A stretch of DNA of 56,664 nucleotides, the filler included, from Sphacelaria rigidula (lineage: Eukaryota), in the NCBI GenBank assembly GCA_964200075.2. It is 3 parts of 3 records of this genome, joined end to end, with 100 filler letters (N's around TTAATTAATTAA, not from the genome) between each part and the next. Parts side by side here need not be neighbours in the genome. Positions count along the whole stretch, not along the records: positions 18,929 to 37,747 come from CAXNAA020000782.1; 2 more parts are not named here. One strand, 5' to 3'. The notes under the pieces were generated by a model. It worked only from the letters and a program-made list of their open reading frames with translations. It had not been told where the DNA came from and made no database searches. Shown piece after piece: positions 1 to 46,286 of the stretch (positions within the stretch are counted from its first letter, which is position 1; each line of letters starts with the position of its first letter). The position numbers were made by a program, and so were the translations under genes.

Positions 1-1050
1 AGACACGAACTTAGCGCATCATTTTTCGATCGAAAAAGTGCCGCGGAAAACAAAACTTCCGATTTGATACGTCGTGATTTAAACCATCTTCAAAATTAAC
101 TACAACAGTTGAAATCACAACCCTATCAGATCGGAGTTTTCCTTTTCCACACTGCACGTATTTTATCGACAAATAACGTGCTCATACACACCCTGACTAG
201 ACTGTGGCGACCACCGAGCTATTCAAGCACACAAAAAGAAGAGATACCTGTGTTGCTATCAATGCAATATTTGCGACCGGCCTGCTGCCGTTCGTGTCTT
301 CAAGATAACCGCATTACCTTGCTATTGTTGTATTATAGAACGCTCAACAACATATATAAAAGTAGCCCAGACTCAGTCTGCAGTGGAGAGAGCGATGTCA
401 CACTGTTTTGCTCTGTGGTACTAACTAAGCCGCTGATGAAAAATGTCTACGTGTACGGTAAAATGACAGTATAAACAGTACAGCACGGGTAGTTGAGACG
501 ATGTGACACGCAGCGCACACGTCAGGAGAGTCACATGCTCGCAAGTCGATCCTCAGAACGCTTGGTCGAACATATTATCTTGTCGTTATCAAAACCCCAA
601 GGCTAACCATGATCCCAAATCTCAACCCAAGGCATACTGGTACGCTTTGGCAAGGGTGGGGTATACGGCGTGTGTTAGCGAAGCAAAACCACATCCGGCA
701 TACGCTGGCGACTGGGCACCTGGGGCTTTGGTTCCCCCCCAGACCCGAATGTGCTACCCCACACTAAGACCAAGTGTGTATATTTGTTCGACCATGGATT
801 TTGGTGACCAACCCGGGTGAACTCTACTGCATCAAATTATGCTCGAGGTGGGTCAACACTGACTGTCCCCCAAAGATCCAACATTGTACAACAACCAGGA
901 GTCGATTATATCAGTTTGTTTGCGAATATCGCAGGTGTGGTAGTAGTGTGTTGTCATCCCATTTATTCTGGGCGCCAGTCTGCACCTTTCGGTATATGTG
1001 GGCGCACCAGCCGGGGTCACACAGGAGGAAGGTCAACACAGGAGTTTGTA

Positions 1051-1300
1051 CTTTTTTGTTTGTTTTTAGTACCCCACCTTCAATCTGTGGTGCTTGTCTT
1101 TATTTTTTTATTGCGAAAGGGGTTCAGCAGTCCCTTTCCCTCGTCGACCGTTAAGTCGAATTTTGTGTACCCACGACATAGTCGCTCTCCACTGTTAGGC
1201 ATGTGAGAAAAAATGCTAGATTGCTCCAGGAATTGAACCCCGCTACTACTCAACGGTCAGAAGGTTTCGAGGTTACCAACTGAGCCACCGGGGCGACCGG
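1051..1300 (-). mobile_element. tRNA-derived SINE
   Basis: The minus strand begins CCGGTCGCCCCGGTGGCTCAGTTGGTAACC (Pol III A box TGGCTCAGTTGG), then B box GGTTCAATTCC, a non-tRNA body and an A-rich tail near 1051-1070. No full cloverleaf; no TSD found. Confidence 0.7.
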
Positions 1301-2042
1301 TTCAGTAGTGGTGTGCTCGAATTACAAAGAAAGCCTGAGAGCGTGTGTACCCCATGAAAATTGGTAGGCGTACATGAGCCCAGACTCAGCCTGCCGGCAC
1401 AAAAGTGGTCAAGCACTTTTGTGCACTCATTGCCACACAACTAGTCAAAAATGATCCACCTGTCCAAATGAAGAGTAGCTGTGCCGTGTGTCATTCGTCA
1501 GTACCTTTGAAACCAAATCGGTCACAGCTCATCTTGGTCAACTTTTCTTCGAACGCGCTTCATACTATAATGAGATACACTCAAATCAACTGCTTGACAT
1601 CGTTTTTGCCCAGATACAAGCGCACTGCGAGTGTTTCAGATTGTCTGATACATCTGGGAGTCCCTATTTTTCGTGGAATCAAACACCCGTCCCCCCCCCC
1701 CCATCGCAGGATCACTTCGTGCCACAGCTTCCATCAAAATTCGATTGTTTGCTGCTGTACCGCATGCTTGCAGTGAGGTTTGTAAATCATTCTCGTGGAC
1801 ATGTCACGTATATCCAGTATGAATATATATTCCGAGAAGCAGAATACGACAGCTGCGGTTGAGGTGATACTCAAGCTGCGTGGTCACGTGCATCAAAGCG
1901 TCCGTACTTAATAAGCGAAGGACACGGGTCACGGCTAGGGTGGCAATTAAGTCACTAAGTGTGTCACCTCTCGTCACTTGAGCAATATCCGGCGACGATA
2001 TGTACGAGCTGGACCAGCCGAGAAGCGATTCTGCAGTTTGCA

Positions 2043-2308
2043 GGCCCATTATACGGCCAATACTTGGAGCTGTGCCCTGAAATTGGGTATGGATAATGAG
2101 TAGGGCAAAATAAAAAAATTACTGGCGCACACAAGGTTTTTTTTTTTTTTCCATGAGTTAGGGGCATTTTACCGATATTTGAAAACTGATTATTGCCTTC
2201 ACTCATGAAAAAAAAACTTGTGCACGCCAGTATTTTTTTGTTATGCCCAGCTCATTGTCCATACCAATTTTCAGGGTTCAACTCCAAGTATTGGCCATAT
2301 AATGGGCC
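2043..2308. mobile_element. Palindromic (foldback) MITE
   Basis: About 120-bp imperfect inverted arms GGCCCATTATACGGCCAATACTTGGAG... / ...CTCCAAGTATTGGCCATATAATGGGCC around a ~27-nt loop. Confidence 0.75.
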
Positions 2309-3111
2309 GTTTAGTGACAGGGTCAGAAGAAATTCAGAACAGTATTTTGCAGGATATATACCGGCCCACGTTTGGTGTTTGTGTATTGAAATCTTGTGTG
2401 GGCGCTCTCTAAGGCATATTTAACAAAAGAAAGTGGGTTAGGTTGATTTTTTTCAATTTTTTCCACTGGTTTAGGGCGTTCTCCTATGGTAAAGACCATA
2501 TTTAACGAGAACGCCCTAACCTCTATGAAAATAAAATAAATGGAAGGCCCATTTTTATTTATTTATTCGGCACTCTTTTGTGGTTCTCCACACCAAAATT
2601 CGTCGCCATCCGCTAAGTGCATCGATCGGAAGCTTCATAGAGATTTTAGTATTGACGCTATCTCCCTTAGGTATAGGAATTACTAGACATGGGATTGAAT
2701 CAACGAGAAAATATGGGCCCAAGCTTTTGAGCAGATGGGCACCTTCCCCTTGATTAGACGATTAATACGATATGCGGACCACGGCCCAACTCGTCTGTGT
2801 CGATAAGATATTGCTTTTAGAGCTTAAATCAGTTTTTAGGCTGGCCCAGCTCGTAGTCGTCGCACGGAATCCGGTTTGGGCAGACAGAACCACATCGCCA
2901 TCGGGGCATGGCAGTGATTCATGTTCAGATTTCATGACATACAGTGAGCAAGATCCTCAAGGAGTGAATCAAGGGAATGAGTCATGACTCTTCAGACGCT
3001 GCTACGCGACTCTGTGCGCAGCACAACACGGTATTCCCGGCTTGCGTGTGCTACAGTAGTGTCCACTTCGTTCGAATCCAGAGCACGGTACAGTAAAACG
3101 TGTGCTAGGAA

Positions 3112-3402
3112 TGTTTTCGCGAGATTGGGAGTAGAGCGTTGATTGAGAGTGGATTTTATCATTCGCTTTAATATTATCAATGTTCCAATATCTGTGTGCT
3201 CTTCTTTTCCTGTGACACTGGCGTGTGCTTACTGCTACTCGTCCATGTCCTTCTCAGGGATATCAAGGGCTTCAGTGGCAAGCTTTACTACAGAAAGCGT
3301 ATCGGAACTCGTGAAGGGACATTTCGGATATGAAGCGATTCATTCATATATTGACCGTTTCTCACTCTCAATCGTATCATCTCCCCTCAATCTCACAAAA
3401 AA
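3112..3402. mobile_element. MITE family A, copy 1 (TIR ~TGTTTTCGTGAGATTG)
   Basis: Shares the core CACTGGCGTGTGCTTAC...TCAAGGGCTTCAGTGGCA with 14552-14822 and 16274-16568. The ends are imperfect inverted repeats. Confidence 0.7.
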
Positions 3403-3787
3403 ATTGTTTGCTGCGCACACTAGGGTAAATAAAAAAATATCAAGCAAAAGGACTCGCCCCTCATCATATCTTTCAGCGCGACTCAACGTGTGGAACAACA
3501 TCGCCCTCTGACAGTCCCGATGAAAACGGGTGAGAGGGCCTCGGGGTGGTTGGCGGGACTACTGAAATCAAGATATATAAACAGAGTAAATATCATCACA
3601 CGAACACTAATGTAGGTATCGATTGAACACTCACTTCAAAACAGGGTGGACCACAAATCCACCTTTTTCGCGCTGCCACGGAGATAGAGTAAGAACTTTC
3701 GCCCAACAACACATTCGCCCGGTGACCCGACGATGCAGCCGCCAATCGACGTGCAAGGGCATGGTCCCGTTGGTTTTCGTGGCAAGG

Positions 3788-27378: not shown

Positions 27379-30300
27379 ATGGTGAGTTCCCGAAGGAAGC
27401 AAGGCTGCTGCTACTGAGAGCCGTCTGTGTTGTTCCTAGAGATCATGCTTGCTTGCTTGACACGGAATTGCGAAAGCTGATGCGAATGGTTTGAGATTCT
27501 GCCCTTGTGATGATGGCAGCTTTTGAGGTACTCATCATCTCTGTTGCGCAGTGAAGGAAATGCCGCGGCTCATCGTCTGCCGTGGTTTGCGCTGAAAAGA
27601 CAGTGTTGGCACCGTTTACTGAGGTGGCATTCGGCCATAATGTCCATGTCAATTTATCTCATGAGTTCAGCTTGAGCTGTCGGTGCCCCCCACTCAAGAT
27701 TTGTAATGGACGCAGCGGACTCAAATTGTTTCAGGTAGGCAGGTCGGTAGTAGAAAATAACATGGGCCCGCCCCTGTAAAGCATATACGGCACTGTGCCC
27801 GCCGTGCACCACACAACAGCGTAGCACAGGCCGATAGCCTCGATCGCCTCTCGGAGGCTACGATGTCCGCAGTACATGTGTTCCCCTAAGCTCATAGTTG
27901 TGAGAGTAACTTTTGTTACACACCGTGTTGATCAACAGGGCTAATGTGCGGTTGGTTGGCCGATGAAAAAGCGCAGCAATCGTGCTCAACAGTACATTAC
28001 ACGACGGTCAGTACAGACAGTCCATCAGTCTCCATGTAATCCTTGAGAGGCTTACATAGGTTGTATATTACAGTAGTGTCCTTGGCCTCAACACGGGGTG
28101 CTCATTCTGCTCGTCATGTAAGCCCATTCGGCACTAGATCAGTCGTACCCAACCATAATGTCTTGACGGTGTTGGACACAGTGCGGGGTGTGCTACACGC
28201 AGTAGTAGCTGTTGGGTGTTATCAGTGGACTCCAGAGTGTCCATTACCTGTTTCGGGATGGCGTTGCCCCTGACTACACATCCCGGTTGAGGACGGACAG
28301 ACGAAATGGGGGTCAAGCTGCGGACACGAAGAAGCTCTGGAATTCAGCGGGGGAGGTACCACTGCAAGGGAGGGCACGCATGATCGCGGAATGGTCGACG
28401 GGTTGGGATGCGAAGCTGATCGGACAATCAGCAGCTCTCGCCGGAGTTCTGTGACATGAATCACGGGATATAACACCCCCTCTCCAGTATTTATTCAATA
28501 CTTTTGAACCTGTATTTTCTCGATACTATGGTCGGCAATACTATGGTAGAGTACGCAGCCATAACCCGCGTCGCGGTGAACACCGTCGCGTTGTTTCTCC
28601 TGCGCCCAAGAATATCTCTTCTTGAACATCGAGGTCTATCCTCGGGCTGGAACCTCCGCCTGTCACGAAAGTTGCTTTACGTCGCTCACGTCACATATGT
28701 ACAATCGTCGCGCACATCTTACGGCGCGCTCGTTGACGAGTGAGACCGAAATCCGCAATCGTGCAGACACGAGGCTCCGATGACCGATTATGACATTTTC
28801 TCACGCTTCCCCAGGCACCGCTCTAGCTGCATGATTGGACTTGATCGCAACCCGTTGCGACATATAAAAAAAATTAGGGCTCACCGAGCAGTTCGTACGT
28901 GCCCTGTAGCGTAGTATTGACTAATGGCGTATCACACTTGGCGTTTTTCAAATCAGCTTCCACTCGTGATTCCACGAGTGGCGTCACCTGCTCCGTCCCT
29001 AATGCCCTCCCGGCGTTTGAAAGGACAAACTCGGAAAGGAGTCCCGCGTCCGTTACAATCATCTCGTATATTTGGATGCCGATCGCCCAATTTATCGTAC
29101 CATGCGTTGCCTTCGAACTGCTCTCGCGTATGATCCGTCTTGACCTTTCGACGCTTTGCCGTAGCCCTACCTCAGTGCCATATGAACATTTCCGCTGTTT
29201 TCTGCCCCATGCGGTTTGCAGGGTCGCGGGCCCAAGAAGCACTTGAAGCGCCTGAATGCGCCCAAGCACTGGCTGCTTGGTAAGATGGACGGGGTGTGGG
29301 CGCCCAAGGTGAGGAACAATCTGTTGACTTCAAGTTGGATCCCACATTCCACGAACATTTTCTCCCAGCACGGTTGCAAGTGGAAAAAACACGTACATTT
29401 CATGTCGGTTCTGCCGTTGTAGATGCAGAGATTGGGACGTGGTATTGGGTCTTGAATGATGAAAGACCATGATGAAAATATGACGTGCGTTCATGCGATG
29501 AGGTCACGACTGCATTTCACCGTCGCGTATTATTTGAGTACTGGGAGGTCGAATACCCGACATATTGCACTCATTTTCACGAAAAATGTTGGCGGTTGCA
29601 ATACGAGGGACATTTCTGATAATCGCGTGGCCACCTTTCTGAATCAGATGCATATCTTTAGATCCGCGCGTACACATTCACAAACTCCGTTGTTTCTGCT
29701 TTTTTCCCGTTTCTACCCTTTCTTTATTTGTCGTTAGCCCTCCCCCGGACCTCACCCAGGAAGGGAGTGCCTGCCCTTGGTAATCATCATCCGGAACAGA
29801 CTGAAGTACGCGTTGACCATGTCTGAGGCCAACATGATCTGCATGCAAAAGCTCATCAAGGTGGACGGAAAGGTTCGCACTGACGTGAACTTCCCCGCTG
29901 GATTCATGGGTGGGTACTTCGCTCAAAATGATGTGAAAATAATTTCATGCCCAAACTTATTTTCTTTCCATGGGTGTGTGAACATCTGAGACCGACACGA
30001 GGTGCTTCGTTCGCGTGTGGTCTCTAATGATACCAAGAAACGCGCAGCAGTTCTTGCATGACGACGGTCTGACGCCACTTTTGACTCGTCGAAACCGTGA
30101 GGTGATAATTTGGACCCGTGGACAGAAATGTATCGACTATTGCGCACATGGCGACAGACGAAGGATCTTGAACTGTACGCGGTACACTTCATGACGAAAG
30201 GTTTTTGTAAATGACATTTTTCTTTCCTTGGAGCATTTTTGACGTCAACGGACAGCTGAGCCCGTCATGCACTATGAGAAATTTGGTGGAACCTTGCCAA

Positions 30301-33300
30301 TTCTGCCCACTGGGTAAGCCTCTGAGCGGTACGTCCGGTCGTGTTTTCAGCTGGCACTACATGCGGCCCCGTGCAAAAATCTAGGAGCGAGTCACATTAT
30401 CTGATATCATGATCGGTAGTCAAACGACCGTAGAAACGACCAGTGTCGACGTATGCGGTCTTGATCCGACCGTCTCGAGCACAGTTGGGACGGGCATCCG
30501 AGTGGCGGGGAGATGGAGCGATAACTCGTCCTTCGCTCTGCATACCCTCGTTTTGTGTTTTTGGACCCCCCAAAAGTAGGCTGTAGTGCTCTATTTTGTC
30601 CTCTGAGTGCCCTGCTTTTTACATTTGTGGCTCGGCATTTTGGATGTCTCACACCCTCGACAGCATGTGGTTGATTGTTGCAGTGGAAAAAAGTGTACTG
30701 CGTACATGTACCTCACGCAGCACATTTTTTTAATCGCAAGTACTGAGAACATATTGTTCATGGTATTTACTCTTATCGGTCCCTCGAAAGTTTTTCCACC
30801 ACGCTCCTGCAAATTGATTTGTGGTACAAAAAGTGGTGGATCATGTGACGGTCAGGTATTCATTGGGGGCGTCGATAATGGCTCTGACGGGGGGTAGAGT
30901 CTGCCCACGCTACAGTAGGTCGTGGGGAAAAGAACACCGAGAAAGGTACTGGGAACGAGAAATACGTTTCCTAAACTAGCCTCCTTCGAGATCTCGGGGC
31001 TTGAAAACGTATTTCGTGTTTCAACTTTCCTCCGTGAAACGGTATTATTTCAAGGACGGGTCGAGTAAAGTATACTTGAACGCGGGGTATTTCGAAAGAC
31101 ATACTTGGAGTACTCTAGTTGGGGTAGAGTGCTGGAAGTCGTACCCATATAGTAGCTGGGAAGCGATTCCTGAAACCCTGCCACCAAGCTGTGTACTCTG
31201 ACTTCGACTTTCGAAATATCCGGCAATTGAGTATACTCTACTCGACCTACGCTTTCATCATTTGAACAAAATGTTTTCGGTCTTGCGGTATCCTGTGAAT
31301 ACAAATCTACTACACTCCGCAAGGATCATGTGTGGAAATTACAACCTCAATACCATCTTCCGTATGAGGACACACGCCATATTTGGATCAGAGAAAGTGC
31401 GGACGACGTCAACCATTCGGCACCTTGAACGCTATTGATGACTTTGTACGTGCTTCGTATTCCCAACTGTCCGATGTAAGCTGCGTCGGTCGACACGATT
31501 TTTCTTCGCTGCAGAGGCACCTTGTAACCTACCCTAGAAGAAAGAGTTTCTCCGTGAAATCGGGTCAACCGGAGCAATTTGTCGTCATCGTAGTGGGATC
31601 CCGTGATTACAAATCTATGCACCACTCCGCAAGGCGTATGTGTGGAAACAACACCTAAACACCATCTTTCGTATGAGGATCCCCTCTGTGAGAGACATTG
31701 ATGCGCAAAGGACGTGAATCAATCGACTGCGTCTATTCTGCTGTGTTCCAATTTTTGTGTAGAATTGAGTGAACAAGCGTCTGTGCGTGTTTTCGTTTGT
31801 GTCTGATATATCCGTGGTTTTGCGTCGATCGAAACGAGATGATTCTACTAAGAGCGAGATCCCGTGATTACAAATCTATGCACCACTCCGCAAGGCGTAT
31901 ATGTGGAAACAACACCTGAACACCATCTTTCGTATGAGGATCCTCTCGCTGCTCACCCTTGACAGCCGAACAGTAGCCATGGCTTCTGGAACCTGGACCG
32001 ACTCTTTTCCCCTATTTGATGCTGCATCTGCAACGGAATTCATCCGGTACCGTACGGTCGGCATTATTGTACCTTTTCTGCCGTCGCTTATGCGACGAAC
32101 CGTTTTCTTCGCTGTGGCTATTTGCTGGCCGGAGTGACTTTCAGGCACAACACACGATTGAACTCATGCATCGTAGGGTCTAACCAATCGCAAATCATGT
32201 CAATGTTCTGTGTCTTCCTCGTCGTGGGAGGCCACACTGTATCCCCCAAACGTACTGAGTTTTTTCACGGCATGCGAGAAGATTGTTGGATTTCGTCTGG
32301 TCTAACCACTCTGCGGTTATGAAACCCTCATGTGTCCCTGAGACGGTACGAACATGTGGCAGATGAACGTCCGTGCAACTCGCGATCCCCGTGGTGTATC
32401 TAGCCCGGCTGTATCGTCGTTTATCCTGTGAATTTAAACCTGTGCACCACTCCAAAACGAAGTGATGTGCCAAACACCTGTTGACACCAAATGTCACAAA
32501 ATGAGAACAAGCAACCACGCGGACATGTGTGTAAGCACCTGGTGGCCGATGTGAACAAGTGGTGCAGCTCCACCCCACGCTAAACCCGTTCTATGGGAAA
32601 CTGATCCATGTGTCACTGCTCCGAACGCTTTGATTTCGTGCATGAGCTTTTTTTTCATGATTGCGAAGTGCCGCGCTACCGGTGATCCATGCCTGACTTC
32701 AATTTCACCTGCGATTATAGGCTCTCCCATTGCCTGTTTTTCTTCTGGTGCGTGTGTGCGCAGACGTTGTGCAGATTGACAAGTCTGGCGACCTGTTCCG
32801 TTTGTTGTACAACACGAAGGGACACTTTGTTCTCCACCGAATTTCCCCCGAGGAGGCGAAGTTCAAGCTCTGCCGCGTCAACAAAGTGAGCGCATGTACC
32901 GCTACGGAACGGCTTCAAGGCTCGAAGTTTCACCACGGTTTCCAGTGGAGAAGAATCACACTCACAGCTGAAAATTGAAATACAGTCGACACCTGATGCA
33001 TATATCATCGCATGTTCCATTCAACGTCCCTTCCCGTCAGTCCTGCACAACTTCAGTGTCCTTTGCAATTCCCAATGGAGGATGTTCACGAACTAGTTAC
33101 TCTACACTTTTTGACACCAAAAGTAAGCCTCAAGGATCACCCGTCATGTCCGTGATTAGCTCACTTCCTATACGTGAATGTTTATCCGGGAATATCGCAC
33201 CTCGCGTTCATTTGTAAACGGTAACTGCTGCGGTCGAGAAGTCTACGCCGTCTATGATGCAAACCATGACCTGCACGGGTCATGATAATACATGAAGTGT

Positions 33301-35955
33301 TCTGCGAGCTAGGCGGCAGTTCGTTGCGTCCAGTGCCGAAGGGAAGCCTCGGCGTTCGGATCACCTGGCGGGCACAGGTTCAACCATGAGCGATTCAAAT
33401 GCCGAATGACCATTTTTCATTCGTCACGCCCTGCGTTTTTTTCCTCCGTCGTGCAGGTGGAGTTCACGAAGAACAAGATCCCATATCTGGTCACCCACGA
33501 TGGACGCACCATCCGTTACCCGGACCCCCTCATCAAGGTGAGAGGAAGCAAAATAGGCCGATGGTTCTCGTGAGTCCGTCTGGCTCCTCATGTTGTCTTC
33601 ACATGAATGAAAGCGTTCCGATTTCTTGGCCGCACATCCGTGATGGGAGTCTGATGCGGACGCCCCCTGTGTTCACAGGTCAGCCACCTATGATGCACTT
33701 CGAGGAAATCGAACAAGGAAACAGTAAACAACTGGTATACCTGAAGGTATCCGGTGCCGCAGGTTACTATTTGGACTTGGGGGGGGGCGGTGGCCGATTG
33801 GACTTGGGGGGGGCGGTGGCCGACCTAACTCTACGCGTGAGAACAAGTAGAAACAAATACAGGGTCAAACCACGGACCAAACTCAATGCCCGAAGACCAC
33901 CAACCAAAATACTGGGAAAGTGAGGTTCTATTCGTCGATATCCCGAGAGAAATACGTACAAACATACAAGGCATATCAAGACGAGCTCCGCATGACCAAG
34001 CAACACCTCATCGGGGGAGGTCACCCCGCTTCTCCTTTTCTGTAATATCGGCATTGCGGAGTCGGCTTCGTTGATGTCCCGCCAATCGCACGCAGTGGGT
34101 CGGCCCCCCCTTTATTCCCGTGCCATGAGGTCATGAACCTCTGCCCTCCCTGCAGCACTGACGCACGCCACGGCATCCCCCCTTCCTCATCCCCTGCTGA
34201 GGGCCAGAGGACGCGGTCATTTCCGAATGTCTGACGATTTTCACCCGTGGAGCTGCATGTGGCTCCGGAAACTTGAAGATCGTCTCCCAGACGAGTCGGC
34301 CTGTTTCGTTTCGGGCGCCCATGTCCTGGGTTCTCCTCCCCCCCATAGTGTTTTCCACGACGTTTGCATCAGTAGTCATCCGTCTCTTGTGTGGTGAGTG
34401 CTCCCGCGAATAGCACTCACCGTTGCCCTGACTAGACAAGCGGACGGACGATTACCGATGCAAACGTCGTGAAGAACACTGGTTGGGGGCTGAAGAACGT
34501 AGGACAATTGTGCCCGGAACGAAACTGGCCGAAGTGCCATGAAATAATGTCCAATCTTTCGGAGCCACTTACAGCTCTACGGACGACGATCGTCAGACAC
34601 TCGGAAATTATGTGTTCTCTGGCCCTCGGCAGCGAATGAGGAGGGTGGATGCCGTGGCACGCGCCAGTGCAGCGGGGATCGCAGAGGCCCATGACCTCGT
34701 GGCACGGAAATGAAGAGGAGACTACCCCACTGTCCTTGATCGCGTGCGTTCACTTGACCGATCTGTAAAGCTCACCACGCCCTGTAGCCGTGTTTGGGTT
34801 GACACGGCATGAAGAAGCAGGTACTCACCATCACTTGAGATGGTGTTGCAGTATACGCTGTCGCCGCCTTTTGTCGAGTTTCGGCCACATCTCATGGTGT
34901 ACACCTGCATGGCTCTTCACTGCTAGATTGGATCACTTTCGAGTCAACATGGTGTTGAGTGCTACTTCCATGGATCTAATTTTCCACAACAAGCGGAAAT
35001 TGTGGAATACTTATTTGTCGTCTTCGTTGCACAGGACGGCGGTATATAGACATCGGTTTTTACAGTAGCTGCCCTTGAGCTTCACTTATCTATCCCACAT
35101 TATTCTTGGGAAAAAAATGAAGAAAGGAAAATCGGCGTTTTGACCATAACTGGGCAACAGGTGAACGACGTGATCAAGGTGGATCTGGAGACGGGAAAGC
35201 CGATTGAGGTCATCAAGTTCGAGATCGGCAACGTGTGTATGATCTCAAGGGGCCGCAACGCTGGGCGTGTTGGGGTGATGCAGCACATCGAAAGGCACCC
35301 TGGATCGTTCGACATCGTGTCCGTCAAAGACGGGGCTGGACACGTGTTCGCCACCCGGCTGCAGAACATCTTCACCATGGGCCACGGCACCCGCACCATG
35401 GTCAGTTCTTGCTCAGACCTGTGGGTCGGTGTCGGTGTCTTATCCCCCCACACCACGGAGGTTTATCACTGGGAATGCATGCGTTTTGGGTGTCCTGCCC
35501 AATTCTCCTCACGATACTTGTCTGATGTTCTCGATTTCTTTCGAGCCCTGAATTGTTTGTGTGGTCGGGCGTGAGGTCGAGGTCCCGCGTGCCTGCAATA
35601 CTATCACTCCCTCCTCGTGCCTGTCTCTGTCGCACCCCTATGGCGAGTCATGTTCCTGGGCCTTGACATCTGCCATGACACTGAGAAATGCCGATGCCGT
35701 GCCGCTGAATGTAGTTACAGACACGTTCATATACTACTGTGGGCAAAACAGACGGTGAGCATCCTTATTTTGTGCTTGTCGGTACCGTCGCCTGGACATG
35801 CATACCATGTGGCACACTCATGTACAAACTCGTTTGTGTTGATGCTGTCGCGTGTGCTTTATTGACGACAGGTGTCGCTTCCTAAGGGTAAGGGCATCAA
35901 GCTCAGCATCCTCGAGGAAAGGGCGGCGAAGGTCAAGAAGGCGTTGAACAACTAG
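27379..35955 (+). CDS. RPS4: 40S ribosomal protein S4 (eS4), 7 exons (27379-27381, 29222-29308, 29738-29909, 32764-32885, 33457-33537, 35161-35400, 35872-35955), 262 aa
   Basis: [104 protein letters not shown]. All junctions GT-AG and in phase (789 nt). The ATG-only first coding exon is the least certain part. Confidence 0.96.
31288..31373 (+). ncRNA. Degenerate copy of the dual-guide C/D snoRNA
   Basis: Aligns end to end with 31595-31683, but box C is GTGAATA and both guides are mutated. Confidence 0.5.
31595..31683 (+). ncRNA. Intronic box C/D snoRNA, SNORD32/U32-like targets (SSU Gm1271 and LSU Am807 equivalents, yeast numbering)
   Basis: 7-bp terminal stem GGGATCC/GGATCCC; box C GTGATTA (31603-31609); box D ATGA (31673-31676). 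Guide CACCATCTTTCG is antisense to LSU CGAAAGAUGGUG. Guide CTATGCACCAC is antisense to SSU GUGGUGCAUGG (one G-U). Confidence 0.8.
31853..31950 (+). ncRNA. Second intact copy of the same box C/D snoRNA
   Basis: Core differs from 31603-31676 at two non-guide positions. It has its own extended terminal stem, AGCGAGATCC / GGATCCTCTCGCT. Confidence 0.8.
32421..32510 (+). ncRNA. Highly diverged fourth snoRNA copy
   Basis: TCCTGTGAATT...CTGTGCACCACTCC...AACACCTG..ACACCA...ATGAG. The SSU guide could still pair through G-U; the LSU guide is lost. Confidence 0.4.
34104..34720. mobile_element. ~615-bp foldback element in RPS4 intron 5
   Basis: Near-continuous imperfect inverted arms of ~280 bp, e.g. 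CCGTGCCATGAGGTCATG / CATGACCTCGTGGCACGG and CACGACGTTTGCATC / GATGCAAACGTCGTG. Confidence 0.85.
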
Positions 35956-40136: not shown

Positions 40137-43100
40137 CGTGACGCCAGCCAGTGGAAGCCCTGTTGGATCACTGCTGTTGAGGGGCTCCCCAGTCTTACTG
40201 CCCTCAGTTTCAGTTGTCAGCCTTTACAACATTCTCATTATTCAGGAGTGACCTTCCACGGCACCCATCTAGGCACGCCAGGGTATCAACCTAGTGTCCC
40301 CGGCCAATATCCAGATCATCACTACCAACGGTCATTATCCATATCATCACTACCAACTCAACGTACGGCGTATTTTCGTCACAGCACCCCCAAAGCGCGT
40401 TGGAGCCATGCTACGATAGGGATGCACTTGTTTGGCAAAAATATTTCTCGGGGTGTTGGACGGGTCATCCTGAGAATCGGCGTCATTTTTACTTGAAAAG
40501 GACTAAAAATGATGCCGATTAACGAAAAGGCCCCTGCGTACATCTTCATGTCCGATCCCCGGATATTTGAATTGCAGAGTAAGCCCCATATATTTGGGAT
40601 CCTACAAAAAAGCGACCCAGAAACAAAAAGTGCAACCCCTATCGTAGCGTGGCTCGTTGGACGAAAATTGATCAACAAGCCTGAAACATAGAAAACGCCA
40701 AAACGATGAGTAAGTCACCATTGAATACCAAACTCATTCGTAATGCGAGCAGCAACGGCACGAGTCACGCGCAATTTACGCAACTCCTTCGTAAGAAATT
40801 GCGGAGCGGCCCTCCTAAATATCCTTGAAAGACTCCCACGTACGCTTCTCAACTTCGAAACCAACCCAGTCGACCAACACGATCAACGAACGATCATCTG
40901 CTTCTGCCACTCGGACAATACCAGCCATCTGAAATTGCCCTGATTGAAAGCATGCTGGAACACGTCCTTAACGTCAGCCGTAACATTAAGCTGCGAGTTT
41001 GCATGAAAACGCAGACGAGCTACATACATAGGCGGTCTGATTACGACCCGAAACAATGTTCTGAACCTCAAACACGTGCGGGTGGTGAGCACCAACCACT
41101 CTCCATGGACCAGTCCAAGTCGCCATCAACTTGGGCGTAATCCGGACGACGCGCGTGTGCATACAAGACATAGTCGCCTACCACAAAATTCGGCAATTCC
41201 AGCCCCGACGAGGACCCCTCACGTCTACGCGCACGTTCAGCAGCAAAATGTTCCTGCACTTCAACGTGGAAACGTTTTTGCAAGTCCAAGACTCCTTGCA
41301 ATGCTCTCTTAATTTAAAGATCGTCCAAAACATCACAGTTCCATTCCCCCGCCGACGAAGACGCCAGCACCGAGAAAGACGTCCGAGGAGCACGACCAAA
41401 CATCACGTGGTACGGCGTACTATCGTAACGACGGCGATACGCTGTATTGAGCGCCGATCTCACCGCCGGCAACACGTCCACCCACTCGGAAACCGCTCTA
41501 CGCTGCTCGAAAGGAATAGAGCAAAGAGCACGAACTACTTCCTTAACCATGCGTTCGCACGTACCGTTAGACCATGCAGAATACGCCACCGCAAACTGGT
41601 GATCAACGCGCAAAGCGTCTCGCAATCGGGCCAAGGTCGCATCCTTGAAATGCGCGGCGGTATCACTCACCCACACATGCGGCACCCCCAAAGTTTTGCA
41701 CCAATTCAGCAAAGATGCAGCGGTCGATTCAGCAGTACACACTGCTACTGGTTCCAGAGCCATAAAGTTGCTCAAATCATCCATGATTACCAAAATGTAT
41801 CGGAACCCAGCATCCTCCGACAAACCTTGGGAAGCTAGCCGGCCACTCTCGCCCACGTACAAGAAATCGAAATGAACGACTTTATTCGGCGTGGTCCCAT
41901 GGACCGTTTCGCCGAGCGGGCGGGGAACAACATCGCCCGCCCTCGAGTCAGCACAGTGAAGACACTGGCGGACAAGTTCGCGCACCTGAGTTTCTATCCC
42001 CTGCCAGACAAAAATTCTTGCAAGCGCAAGAGCGTCGCAGCCACACCACGATGCCCGGCGTCGCGCATGTGCGCGCATATAATCAGACGAACCTGCAACT
42101 ATTTGTCAGAATTCGGAACCCACAAAACCTTTCGACCACGCACATGCACACGGAACATACCTCTATTATCCAAGATAGCAGTACCAACGTCCGACTCGAA
42201 AGATTGCACATCCGCATGTTAGGCCCCGAGGTCTTTTCGTTGGGCTTGACGAACAACAGATTTGGACGGCATCGAGTCATCAGGTTCACACGGACTATGC
42301 ACAGCCACAGCGCGCGCAGGCAAAGCCGGAATATTCACCAAACGCGAAAGCAAGTCACCCCACGCGTTACGGTCACCCGAACTATGGCAAATCGAGTAAC
42401 GGTACTGGCCAAGAACAGCTTTCCAACCCTCCAAACGTTGTGCCAATGCTTTCGACACAGACGTAACGCACGCTTGCGGATTGAAAATGTACACGAGATT
42501 TCGGTGATCCCTGAAAATGTGCACTCCGTCCCACAAAAGATGCTCCAAACGACGAAAAGTGCTTACGATAGCAAAGCTTCCTCATTGATTGTGGTCCAAT
42601 GCACCTGCGAACCCTTGAAAGTACCACTGAGGAAAGCCAGCGGTTCATGCGTCATGCCCTCAACTGGCAGGCGTCTTTGTATTTCAGCTTTAGGCACCTG
42701 CGTAACGAAACTACCCGAATGACACTCAGATGCATCCGGAAACATTAGCACCTGACGATTAGGACGAGGATGGAACAGCGTCACGGCATGAGTCACCAGA
42801 TCCTTCGCTGCCGCCCACGCCTGCAACCTGCCCTCCATCCACGATGAGGGCGGAATGGCGCGTTATTTTTGCAACACGCTTCGCCCGCCTCGCAGCACCC
42901 GCCATGAGTTATTCGCAGCACCCGCCATGAGTACAGTTTCTGCCATACACGGCAACGAGGTACGCGGCCAATTCACGGCCTGCAGGACTTGCATGAGTTT
43001 TGCGGCCATCTCTGGGCGCCGCATGTCAGACAAGCCTTGCAATCTGACAGGGTCATGAGATACGCGTCCGTATGAGTACACTTTCCCACACCACACGAGC

Positions 43101-46100
43101 TCACTAGCGAAGAAAGTGCATTTGTGCGCCGACGCAAACAAACCAACATTCTCTGAACGGGCCAAGACAGCATCGAGCGTGTCTAAAAGTTCTTCTTCCG
43201 TATCCGCGAAATAAAACATATCATCCACCCATATCTTGTATTTTAAGCTGACTAGCAGTTCTGTCACGATACCTTGAAAATATGCCGTGGCATTCAACAC
43301 GCCTTGCGGTACTCGCTTCGGGGTAAACAAGCCTAACCGGGTCGTGATTGTGAAAATCTCCTGCACTTCCTCCGCCAACGGCATCTGCCAATAACCTTGG
43401 AGGAGGTCCAACTTGCCAAAAACGAACACTCAAGATATCACGCATGTCCCACTCTTGATTGGGCATCACACCCGACGACTTTTCAACCTGATCATTTACG
43501 GCCTTGTAGTCGCTTATCAGGCGAAACGAGTCTTTCTTGGGAACCGTCATCGCCGGACTGGACCATACCGCCTGCAGGCTCCGGACTACCAACCCAAACG
43601 CCAGAAAAGCCGCCATGCACGACGCCAACCAGCTCGACTTCACCGGATCGTACCGCCGCGGCTTCGCCTTCACCGCGGATGCCCCAGATTTCAGCTGAAC
43701 ATGCATGGGCTCCACGCGCGCAGGGGGATCACCCCGCAGCGCACGACGAAACGCGTTGACGCGGTGATGCAAGATGCCGCGCAGGCGTTCCGCTTTGGGG
43801 ACGCTGAGGCCTTTCGCCACAGCATCCGTCACGCTCTCCTTCAGCGCAACCTTCCGAGCGGACTCGTTCTCCGCCGGGTCCATGAACATATCCGGACCGC
43901 GCTCTACTAAGCGTTTCACCGCCGCATCCCGCTCCTCGGTCGCCTGCCTCCCAGCCTCCTGAAAAGCATCCACCCACAAGCTCACGCGACGACTGCTAAA
44001 AAAAGGCGGGCGTCTCCACGTGCGGACCAGGTAGAGACATCCGCGTCTTGATGGAGTCCTTCAATCGCTCATAAGGGTCGACTCCTAGATCCTGTAGCGT
44101 CGGCAGCCCCAGAAGAACAACGCCATCCGACCCTGGCATAATCGCAAACGAGATCAGAGGCGACAGCGCCAGGCCCCAAGCAGTCTTGAGGGCTAGCTGC
44201 AACGAAACAGTACGCTCCGTGACTGAACGATGCCGACCTGACGCGGTGACTGCCTGCCGCGCCCCGAGCGAAAACGAGGTGCGCAGCGGCACACCCGGGA
44301 GTTGTCGCTCCAGCATCTCAACCATCTGCACCGGCAGATGAGTGAAATGGGCGCCAGAATCCAACACAGACCGAAACACGATGGCTCCACGCTGCCGTTG
44401 ATTCGGATGACGTAACTCCGCCGGAATGTATCTGTCGGCAAGCTCCACGGGAACTTCTTCCGCTGACCTATGCGCCATTAATCACGCTTGACGCTACAGC
44501 TGCGCAAGCTGCGCAGGCGAAGACGCCCCGGCAGGTTCGAACGGCACCGCCGGCGGGTACGCCCCCCAGCCGGCAAACAAAGAATTCGGCGACCCTCCGA
44601 CCAGCGCGTCAACAGGCGTCGCGCCTGGCGCTGCTACCGGTGTCGCCACCGGCGCCACCACCGGCGCTGACGCAGTGTTCGACTCTGTAGAAGTCGGGGC
44701 CACCTGCACCGCACGTTGCGGAGCAGCAGCACCTACGGCGGCGCAAGATCCAGAGCCAGGCCCATGCTGACGCCGCTGCCCCTGCTGCTGCTGGTTCTGC
44801 TGCTGCGGCTGCTGCTGAGGGTTCGCTTGCGACCCTCCATCGCCGGAGATGCGCCGCCGCCACCACGATTACCCCGTCTTTTGCACTTGTGCTGACGATG
44901 CTGATGGCGCGCGGCACTAGACTGCCCAGACTCTCCACCGGAAGATGTTGGGCAATCGCGCGCGTAATGGCCGACCTGGCCACAGCGGTGACAAGTAATA
45001 CTCGCGGCGCGACCAGCCGATTTCGAGCCATGGTTGCGCAAAGATTTCGGCGAAGAGGTGAACGACTGGCCGAACACCTCTATTTTCCGTCACTCCTTGG
45101 CCTCGGCCACGACGGTGCTCATCACCAGGTACGGGTCGCCCTTCCAATCTATTTGGTGCTGCAGCTTGACAAGCACGGCTTGCTTGAAAGTTTCCGGTGC
45201 CAACCCCTCAACCAAAGCCTTGGTGATTACTGCTGCCGGGCCGGGAATGTCCTCACCATCGGGGGAACGATATACTAGTTCTACGTCTGGATTTTCCGTG
45301 AAGTACTTCTCCAAATTGGCCAAGATGGGCTCCATACGCTCCAACATCGTTTTCCCCCGAGAATCCATTGCGACAGCTTTCGCCACGGCCACGGACGCTT
45401 GAGTCAGATCTACCTCGGCGCCCGCCGCATGCTCAGCATGCTTTTTGATCGCCGCAACCGATTGCGGCGAGGTGAGAGGGCTCTCATTATGCTCCAAACG
45501 AGCGAGCACTCTTTGTACGTGAGTTGGCACTTGTTGAGCCATTGTCACCACCTGATGCCGCACGGTACCCCCTGCATATAGCGTGCTCCACACGCTTCTT
45601 GTATTCCAAATACCTCGGGTCAAAAGTACAAGATGCATTCCCTGAGTTCCTGTCCCCGTATTGGGGAGGTCGTAATTCTTCCCTCATGACCACGGGTGTC
45701 ACGGTGGGCGTACCTCGTGAGCCGGTAGCCATAGCTGTAGCTGAATTCGGCTACCTGCGAACCTCTGCAGGCCAGCGGACCTTCGCGAACTGCACTTTCT
45801 TTGTTCCGTCGCCGCACCACACAGTCGTAGGAGCCTCCGAACTCCCGCTGCGCGCAGTTTCAGCAAGTCTCCAGTCTGGATCAATCACAGGCCAGCCGCC
45901 TTTCTGCAGCCGCCTCATCTGGAATCATCTCCACGCGTCCGTGGGTTATCAGGTTTCCACAGCGATCAAACTTCTTCCGCCGAATTCTTTTCCAGCAGAT
46001 GTCTAGCACTAACACTAGGACTAGCGCTAATATCGATATTGTGATGCCAGCCAATGGAAGCACTGTTGGATCACTGCTGTTGAGGGCCTCCCCAGTCTTA

Positions 46101-46286
46101 CTGGCCTCAGTTTCAGTTGTCAGCCTTTACAACATTCTCATTATTCAGGCGTGACCTTCCACGGTACCCATCTAGACACGCCAGTGTACCAACCTATTGT
46201 CCCCGGTCATTATCCAGATCATCACTACCAACGGTCATTATCCATATCATCACTACCAACTCAACATACGGCGTATTTTCGTCCCA
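40137..46286 (-). mobile_element. Ty3/Gypsy LTR retrotransposon with chromodomain, full length but frameshifted
   Basis: 247-bp LTRs 40137-40383 and 46040-46286 (consensus TGTGACG...CGTCACA), TSD GTGG. Order gag (CHRCGQVGHYARDC), protease (VLDSGA), RT (LDLLQGYWQ, PQG, WVDD), RNase H (FPDAS, DHRNL), integrase (VHFDF, NGTCER), chromodomain (LVDWVGFE..RTWE, ~40815-40940). Confidence 0.93.
40403..40655. mobile_element. Sola2-like MITE inserted in the Gypsy 3' region, TSD GTTG
   Basis: GTTG|GAGCCATGCTACGATAGGGATGCAC ... GTGCAACCCCTATCGTAGCGTGGCTC|GTTG. Confidence 0.85.

Follow-up and report, generated by a model that had tools for sequence, protein, structure and literature searches.

A family of four small nucleolar RNA (snoRNA) units of the box C/D type was found within a single intron of the gene for ribosomal protein RPS4 (eS4) in a 56,664-nt stretch of DNA from Sphacelaria rigidula (assembly GCA_964200075.2; three parts joined end to end with filler; hereafter the window). 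Two near-identical units, copies 1 and 2, are best explained as functional, intron-encoded dual-guide snoRNA genes that would direct one methylation in small-subunit (SSU) ribosomal RNA (rRNA) and one in large-subunit (LSU) rRNA, and the remaining two, c0 and c3, as decaying paralogues. Judged from sequence, this reading was given a probability of about 0.72. Coordinates of all features are collected in Table 1.

The two intact units were recovered by a repeat search as copies of a 95-nt sequence on the + strand (31592–31686 and 31853–31947), 95% identical and 261 nt apart. Their 89-nt bodies share 85 of 89 bases. The 100-nt flanks are 45% (upstream) and 51% (downstream) identical between copies, the level seen in 179 random intron pairs (mean 49%, maximum 57%), so the similarity is confined to the 95-nt unit. 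Five differences separate the copies, four within the bodies (31596, 31640, 31657 and 31683) and one at 31594, 1 nt upstream of the 5' stem; none of the five touches a box or a guide. Copy 1 is closed by a 7-bp terminal stem (GGGAUCC/GGAUCCC) and copy 2 by a stem of 5+5 bp with a 3-nt bulge (AGCGA-GAUCC/GGAUC-(CUC)-UCGCU), which is weaker than that of copy 1 in the inner register (G·U, A·C) but extended outward, and both stems were present in the minimum-free-energy folds. Exact occurrences of the two antisense strings in the window were limited to copies 1 and 2. A simple C/D box scan of the whole window returned 16 rows, among which only copies 1 and 2 were compact (<100 nt) with a box-adjacent stem of 5–7 bp. 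No comparable boxes were seen on the reverse strand of the units, and Rfam models run in E-value mode across the whole RPS4 gene gave no further snoRNA-like match. A first-pass annotation of this DNA had described two near-identical units with C- and D-like boxes, two antisense elements and differing terminal stems, all of which was recovered by the repeat search and the folds; it had called the snoRNA duplicated, which is right for the twins and too few for the family, since four members share the intron and the two diverged copies had been overlooked.

The 12-nt SSU guide pairs with the SSU rRNA sequence GGUGGUGCAUGG over 12 contiguous bp (-19.8 kcal/mol) and the 12-nt LSU guide with the LSU rRNA sequence CGAAAGAUGGUG, also over 12 contiguous bp (-19.9 kcal/mol), with 0 of 1000 shuffles as good in either case; duplex energies for copy 2 were approximately those for copy 1. 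Target contexts were taken from two fragments in viral contigs, each used for local context only: a partial eukaryotic SSU (L010; Rfam SSU_rRNA_eukarya, 534 bits) and a chimeric LSU-like fragment with no Rfam match (L012). Both guides show the arrangement of a C/D guide, with at least 10 nt of antisense abutting D or D' and the target at the fifth pair, which in the SSU is the G directly preceding UGCAUGG and in the LSU the second A of CCGAAAG. We take these residues to be most probably those of yeast 18S Gm1271 and 25S Am807. The yeast table lists Um1269 (snR55), Gm1271 (snR40), Gm805 (snR39b) and Am807 (snR39, snR59), and the U-x-G and G-x-A spacing of these sites fits both target contexts. 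In the comparative table, yeast G1271 corresponds to human G1328 and yeast A807 to human A1511. Both sites carry snoRNA-guided methylation in yeast and human, and guide targets at both sites, served by separate snoRNAs, have been predicted in Entamoeba and T. brucei. The earlier proposal that the D+5 rule lands on the equivalents of yeast 18S Gm1271 and 25S Am807 is thus supported by the duplex registers and the comparative tables. By their titles, those publications listed for the LSU string appear to deal with barcoding and taxonomy, which is consistent with a 28S primer site.

Paralogues c0 and c3 were recovered by the repeat search and with a covariance model of the family, which gave nothing better than E = 2.8 in the window beyond the four intron copies. 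Paralogue c3 carries C box GUGAAUU, D' CCAA, a good C' (GUGAUGU), D box AUGA and a poor terminal stem, and is 81% identical to copy 1 over its first 31 nt. The SSU guide of c0 is destroyed by a 5-nt deletion (-12.6 kcal/mol; 137 of 1000 shuffles as good, which is shuffle level), and its LSU guide UACCAUCUUCCG is weakened by a position-4 mismatch that adjoins the target position (-13.0 kcal/mol; 58 of 1000). In c3 the SSU guide GUGCACCACU is kept (-19.0 kcal/mol; 22 of 1000), and the 3' guide is without LSU complementarity (-7.7 kcal/mol; 378 of 1000, again shuffle level). As read from these guides, the cluster is made up of two intact twins and two older, apparently decaying paralogues, each minus a different guide.

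Homologues were sought in metagenome contigs with a pattern consisting of the exact SSU string, a gap of 20–50 nt and the exact LSU string. Nine loci matched, and six of these (L001, L002, L003, L005, L008 and L009) are C/D snoRNAs with the same guide order, C/D boxes and stems. The other three (L004, L006 and L007) were rejected as C/D snoRNAs; L006 scored 20 bits, about what is seen for sequences chosen only because they contain the two strings. The six homologues resemble the Sphacelaria units in guide order and stem geometry, and a C'-like UGUGGA is present in 7 of the 10 alignment rows. They differ in having a canonical D box (CUGA, against AUGA in Sphacelaria) and in the D' box, which is CUGA in L002, L005 and L008, CCGA in L003 and CUAA in L009, against CCGC in Sphacelaria; in L001, CUGA stands 2 nt further on. 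If used, the displaced D' of one L001 copy, 2 nt further 3', would move the SSU target two bases upstream, off the G and onto the U of the yeast Um1269 site.

Terminal stems of the homologues differ in sequence (GUGUCC/GGACAC in L003, CAGCCC/GGGCUG in L005, CAGCGA/UCGCUG in L009). Across 10 aligned members (seven training rows, c0 and two L001 copies), 7 of 7 stem pairs change on both sides, and 76% of stem cells are paired; shuffles gave 51.5%, none of 500 reaching the observed value, and slid partners gave 29–47%. The 3' stem half of c0, GGACAC, is identical to that of L003.

The homologues lie in other genes, and no RPS4 was found on their loci. The snoRNA of L003 sits between exons of a Bud23/WBSCR22-type methyltransferase, whose membership in the Bud23 family was confirmed, and those of L005 and L008 are flanked by exons for the largest subunit of RNA polymerase I, which among named relatives is best matched by brown algae, Tribonema and Chrysoparadoxa (70–85%). 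The L009 snoRNA lies upstream of a Vta1 gene (family membership confirmed). L001 contains two tandem dual-guide snoRNAs (1521–1613 and 1746–1827, - strand) adjoining an RNase MRP RNA gene (2103–2400, - strand; 94.1 bits, above gathering) and upstream of NDUFS8, an exon of which (best matches 95%, ciliate 88%, vertebrates 87%) is too conserved for placement. With hosts that include RPS4, a Bud23-like gene, the RNA polymerase I subunit and others, the family evidently moves between host genes; three of these hosts are ribosome-synthesis genes, as is typical for snoRNAs. An 84-nt contig of run X6 covers 31860–31940 with 8 differences.

The boxes of copies 1 and 2 deviate from consensus in specific ways. 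C box GUGAUUA has one mismatch to RUGAUGA (position 6) and D box AUGA one mismatch to CUGA (position 1), and the GA dinucleotides for the sheared pairs are present in both. The two deviations suggest that C-box U6 and D-box A1 could pair in Watson-Crick fashion in place of the G-C of canonical boxes. Among the homologues, C boxes were AUGAUUG, GUGACGA, AUGACGA and AUGAUGA, all with D box CUGA; members whose C box ends in CGA or UGA retain CUGA. The D' box CCGC occupies the exact slot where homologues have CUGA, CCGA or CUAA, and a contig of run X7, from a relative with RPS4 exons unlike those of the window, has the same SSU guide followed by a canonical CUGA; from these boxes CCGC is read as the degenerate end of a series starting at CUGA. 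The first-pass annotation had noted that the SSU register requires a non-canonical D', and the boxes found at the same slot in the homologues agree with this. CCGC also lies inside the motif CC-GCAA-GG (31627–31634, 31888–31895 and 31317–31324), a possible two-pair hairpin with a GNRA-type loop that is common to c0 and copies 1 and 2 and is not in the metagenome homologues.

Rfam models were searched at gathering level over the whole window with no match, and in E-value mode two families were aligned with the units. RF00134 (snoZ196/R39/R59; plant Z196 and yeast snR39/snR59; clan CL00054) has the same LSU guide, CACCAUCUUUCG, at D, in the same register and with the same target A. Its consensus 3' guide and D box match that string at every letter, with posterior probability '*', and it differs in that its 5' half is without the SSU guide and that the boxes GUGAUUA and AUGA belong to the Sphacelaria units. 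RF00300 (snoZ221/snoR21b, plants) has the same SSU guide, AUGCACCACU, abutting D' in the same register; its consensus D' is CUGA rather than the CCGC of Sphacelaria, and its 3' guide is not the LSU guide, with a CCAU..UU remnant alone aligning. No U32-type model was listed at E <= 10, where only the best family per clan shows. The Rfam search proposed earlier as a check thus placed the guides of snoZ196/R39/R59 and snoZ221 in register, with scores below gathering and no U32-type row.

The same pair of targets is served in human by SNORD32A (U32A), a dual-guide box C/D snoRNA that is likewise encoded in an intron of a ribosomal-protein gene, RPL13A instead of RPS4. As described in a preprint, its D guide is directed to 18S G1328 and the D' guide to 28S A1511, the reverse of the Sphacelaria units, in which the SSU guide is at D' and the LSU guide at D. 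On that description, the earlier statement that the units share the target pair of SNORD32 in opposite order was correct. Its proposed cause, guide permutation or convergent pairing on the Sphacelaria side, was not shown: the Sphacelaria order recurs in six environmental loci, and the same box positions are used in Z221 and in Z196/snR39/snR59. On this comparison it is human U32A, rather than the Sphacelaria locus, that looks like the odd one out in guide order.

Pattern counts for guide order were also taken in other collections. In prokaryote genomes the reverse-order pattern gave 84 matches on bacterial and archaeal contigs, which by a rough estimate is about the chance level for 19 fixed bases in that DNA. 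In viral contigs 2 matches were found in reverse and 27 in forward order, with covariance model scores of 13.7–19.7 bits; this is the level of sequences selected for both strings, so these counts are uninformative about order.

A wider evolutionary scheme is tentative, and we would not bet on it. The order with the guide for the SSU G at D' and the guide for the LSU A at D may be ancestral, surviving in ochrophytes and other protists, with Z221 and Z196/snR39/snR59 derived by duplication and complementary guide loss and U32A permuted or re-paired. Under this scheme the Sphacelaria intron would show such loss under way, since copies 1 and 2 keep both guides, c0 the LSU guide only and c3 the SSU guide only. 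The sole further hint is the CCAU..UU remnant of the Z221 consensus, which stands at the LSU-guide slot.

The host gene lies on the + strand at ~29.2–36 kb. Five exon pieces match the Pfam domains RS4NT, S4, Ribosomal_S4e (twice) and KOW with 40S_S4_C, which upholds the earlier assignment of the host as RPS4, and the intron was confirmed by exon-to-exon contigs in 4 of 4 runs. The ATG-bearing exon of RPS4 was looked for and not located, which leaves the earlier numbering of the host as intron 3 provisional. Among named relatives, an RPS4 exon is best matched by the brown alga Choristocarpus tenellus (73%) and by Chrysoparadoxa and Phaeothamnion; another protein reached 90%. On this evidence the organism would be placed with the ochrophytes, within or close to the brown algae.

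Copies 1 and 2 would be transcribed with the rest of the RPS4 pre-mRNA and then freed from its 2.85-kb intron, probably by endonucleolytic cuts followed by exonucleolytic trimming to stem-protected ends. Endonucleolytic release is probable because one intron holds four units and the 3' splice site is >800 nt away from the intact ones; the animal route, exonucleolytic and with one snoRNA per intron, is less likely here. Trimming would stop at the core of the small nucleolar ribonucleoprotein (snoRNP), composed of Snu13, Nop56, Nop58 and fibrillarin, which would assemble on the kink-turn into which the terminal stem, C box GUGAUUA and D box AUGA fold. The element upstream of D' CCGC would then pair with GGUGGUGCAUGG, placing fibrillarin on the G 5' of UGCAUGG (yeast Gm1271, human Gm1328), and the element upstream of D with CGAAAGAUGGUG, so that the second A would be methylated (yeast Am807, human Am1511). 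Intronic snoRNA clusters of plants, Chlamydomonas and Ostreococcus (two clusters) have likewise been described as holding several units per intron, which implies a polycistronic precursor; Sphacelaria differs from these plant and green-algal clusters in that all four of its units are paralogues of one family.

Several observations count against functional dual-guide genes. The C and D boxes are non-consensus, D' CCGC is without the GA, and C' is just a conserved UGUGGAA. The homologues L002, L005 and L008 have a U at C-box position 6 (AUGAUUG) yet a canonical CUGA, so U6-A1 shows no clean covariation, these three being a misfit unless the extra U is bulged. Fold z-scores were -1.03 (copy 1) and -0.64 (copy 2) and non-significant; unremarkable fold energy is expected for C/D RNAs, which are largely unstructured. 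In E-value mode RF00134 scored 29.4 and 21.5 bits where gathering requires 55, and RF00300 19.2 and 18.3 bits where it requires 44; the six metagenome homologues likewise all fall short of Rfam gathering scores. That the guides are conserved in this set is a product of the search pattern and not independent evidence, and the stem alignment was fitted to the model, with 7 of its 10 rows having trained it, so that the count leans towards structure. Pairing was computed on rRNA fragments of other eukaryotes (L010 and L012), not on Sphacelaria's own. Lastly, at least 818 nt separate the units from the 3' splice site, a long way from the location that animals favour for splicing-dependent release.

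The state of the D' region bears on whether both guides act. Only the D (LSU) guide could be active, the SSU element being a vestige of recent common ancestry and the SSU site being methylated by another snoRNA: CCGC is without the GA of CUGA, C' is far from UGAUGA, CUGA still stands in the relative's homologue so that the Sphacelaria D' box would be degenerating, and c0 is a case in which the SSU guide has gone. We regard this as unlikely, given that copies 1 and 2 have the 12-nt SSU guide unbroken and without a single difference, that c3 keeps it while the LSU guide is lost, and that L003 (CCGA) and L009 (CUAA) keep it in register, though the search pattern required that guide. Degenerate D' and C' boxes are common in active eukaryotic snoRNAs.

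That the units are non-functional relics, either snoRNA pseudogenes or fragments of a mobile repeat carrying old guides, is improbable by a wide measure. Their flanks are randomised yet their bodies are 96% identical with no change in a box or guide, and homologues from other eukaryotes have the same architecture, with compensatory changes in their stems; such preservation is set against non-canonical boxes and the presence of two decaying paralogues beside the twins. A multi-copy foldback element (31059–31247) does share the intron, and a few contigs of run X1 that vary by small indels over copy 2 may point to additional copies elsewhere. Contig depth in that run was 1.7–24.8 over the snoRNA units, compared with 1000–3500 over the foldback element, and the covariance model finds four copies in 56.6 kb, all in the host intron. 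A high-copy dispersed transposable element, named at the outset as something that would overturn the snoRNA interpretation, is thus disfavoured by the copy count in the window and the run X1 depth, with the run X1 variants leaving room for some further copies. Least probable of all is that the RNAs are made and act mainly as rRNA-folding chaperones or as cis elements for RPS4 splicing or expression, methylation being secondary: a ribosomal-protein host with four units in one intron is compatible with this, nothing direct speaks for it, both guides are in exact D+5 register on sites methylated in other eukaryotes, and the homologues lie in unrelated host genes, contrary to a host-specific cis role.

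Taken as functional dual-guide genes, copies 1 and 2 belong to a known kind: intronic dual-guide C/D snoRNAs, both targets and the cluster organisation have been described before, and the understanding of the box C/D guide mechanism is unchanged by the locus. New are the pairing and order of the guides, missed by Rfam thresholds, their occurrence in ochrophytes and other eukaryotes, the variant boxes and the complementary guide loss among paralogues; a published dual guide of the same order may exist in green algae. Hardly any snoRNAs have been annotated in brown-alga relatives or other ochrophytes, and Rfam thresholds miss the Sphacelaria family. In Ectocarpus, snoRNA loci were predicted by program only (ACAseeker, CDseeker) in one published study. 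The locus provides a testable candidate guide for two universally conserved rRNA methylations, and a covariance model with which homologues can be picked up in environmental eukaryotes. It would also record snoRNA birth and death inside one intron, with intact twins beside copies minus different guides, and it suggests that the guide order of human U32A is not the general one.

Table 1. Features of the RPS4 host intron and its snoRNA units (positions in the window).
Feature	Position	Strand	Details
snoRNA copy 1	31595..31683	+	covariance model 91.5 bits
copy 1 5' stem GGGAUCC	31595-31601	+	one spacer base before C box
copy 1 C box GUGAUUA	31603-31609	+	
copy 1 SSU guide, 12 nt, CUAUGCACCACU	31615-31626	+	
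copy 1 D' CCGC	31627-31630	+	
copy 1 conserved C'-like UGUGGAA	31641-31647	+	
copy 1 LSU guide, 12 nt, CACCAUCUUUCG	31660-31671	+	one base before D box
copy 1 D box AUGA	31673-31676	+	
copy 1 3' stem GGAUCCC	31677-31683	+	
snoRNA copy 2	31853..31950, body 31856-31944	+	boxes and guides as copy 1 at +261; covariance model 87.8 bits
copy 2 extended bulged terminal stem	31853-31862 / 31938-31950	+	
paralogue c0	31287..31375	+	C box GUGAAUA, D' CCGC, D box AUGA; covariance model R1 47.3 bits, E 9e-10
paralogue c3	32420..32528, core ~32423-32511	+	covariance model 19.9 bits, E 0.017
RPS4 exon, S4 domain	29738..29909	+	Pfam S4 E 1.1e-07; contigs join from 29908/29909
RPS4 host intron, 2,854 nt, GT..AG	29910..32763	+	contigs join 29908/9 to 32763/4, 4/4 runs
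RPS4 exon, Ribosomal_S4e	32764..32885	+	Pfam E 5.2e-14; contig pieces

Further elements were noted in and around the host gene. The 31059–31247 element is an inverted repeat with 64-nt arms that are 73% complementary; its contigs in run X1, at the depth of 1000–3500 given above, carried many variant letters and opposite-strand joints, and its appearance is that of a transcribed element of foldback or MITE-like type present in multiple copies. A second foldback of ~640 bp lies in a later RPS4 intron (34093–34732) and is built of nested inverted repeats with arms of 91, 62, 47 and 35 nt that are 79–83% complementary. Starting 17 nt past the 5' splice site of the host intron, a C/D-like unit of ~63 nt (29927–29989; AUGAUGU ... 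CUGA) was seen with a possible outer stem ACUUCG/CGAGGU (29913–29918 / 29998–30003) and no Rfam match. Outside RPS4, two copies of a ~140–170 nt repeat that the C/D box scan also returned, but that is not snoRNA-like, stand ~5.9 kb apart on the - strand (40198–40362 and 46095–46265). Runs X5, X6 and X7, labelled as three other organisms, each contained a low-depth spliced RPS4 contig with 0 differences to the window alongside their own diverged RPS4 at high depth, which suggests carry-over between samples or mixed material.

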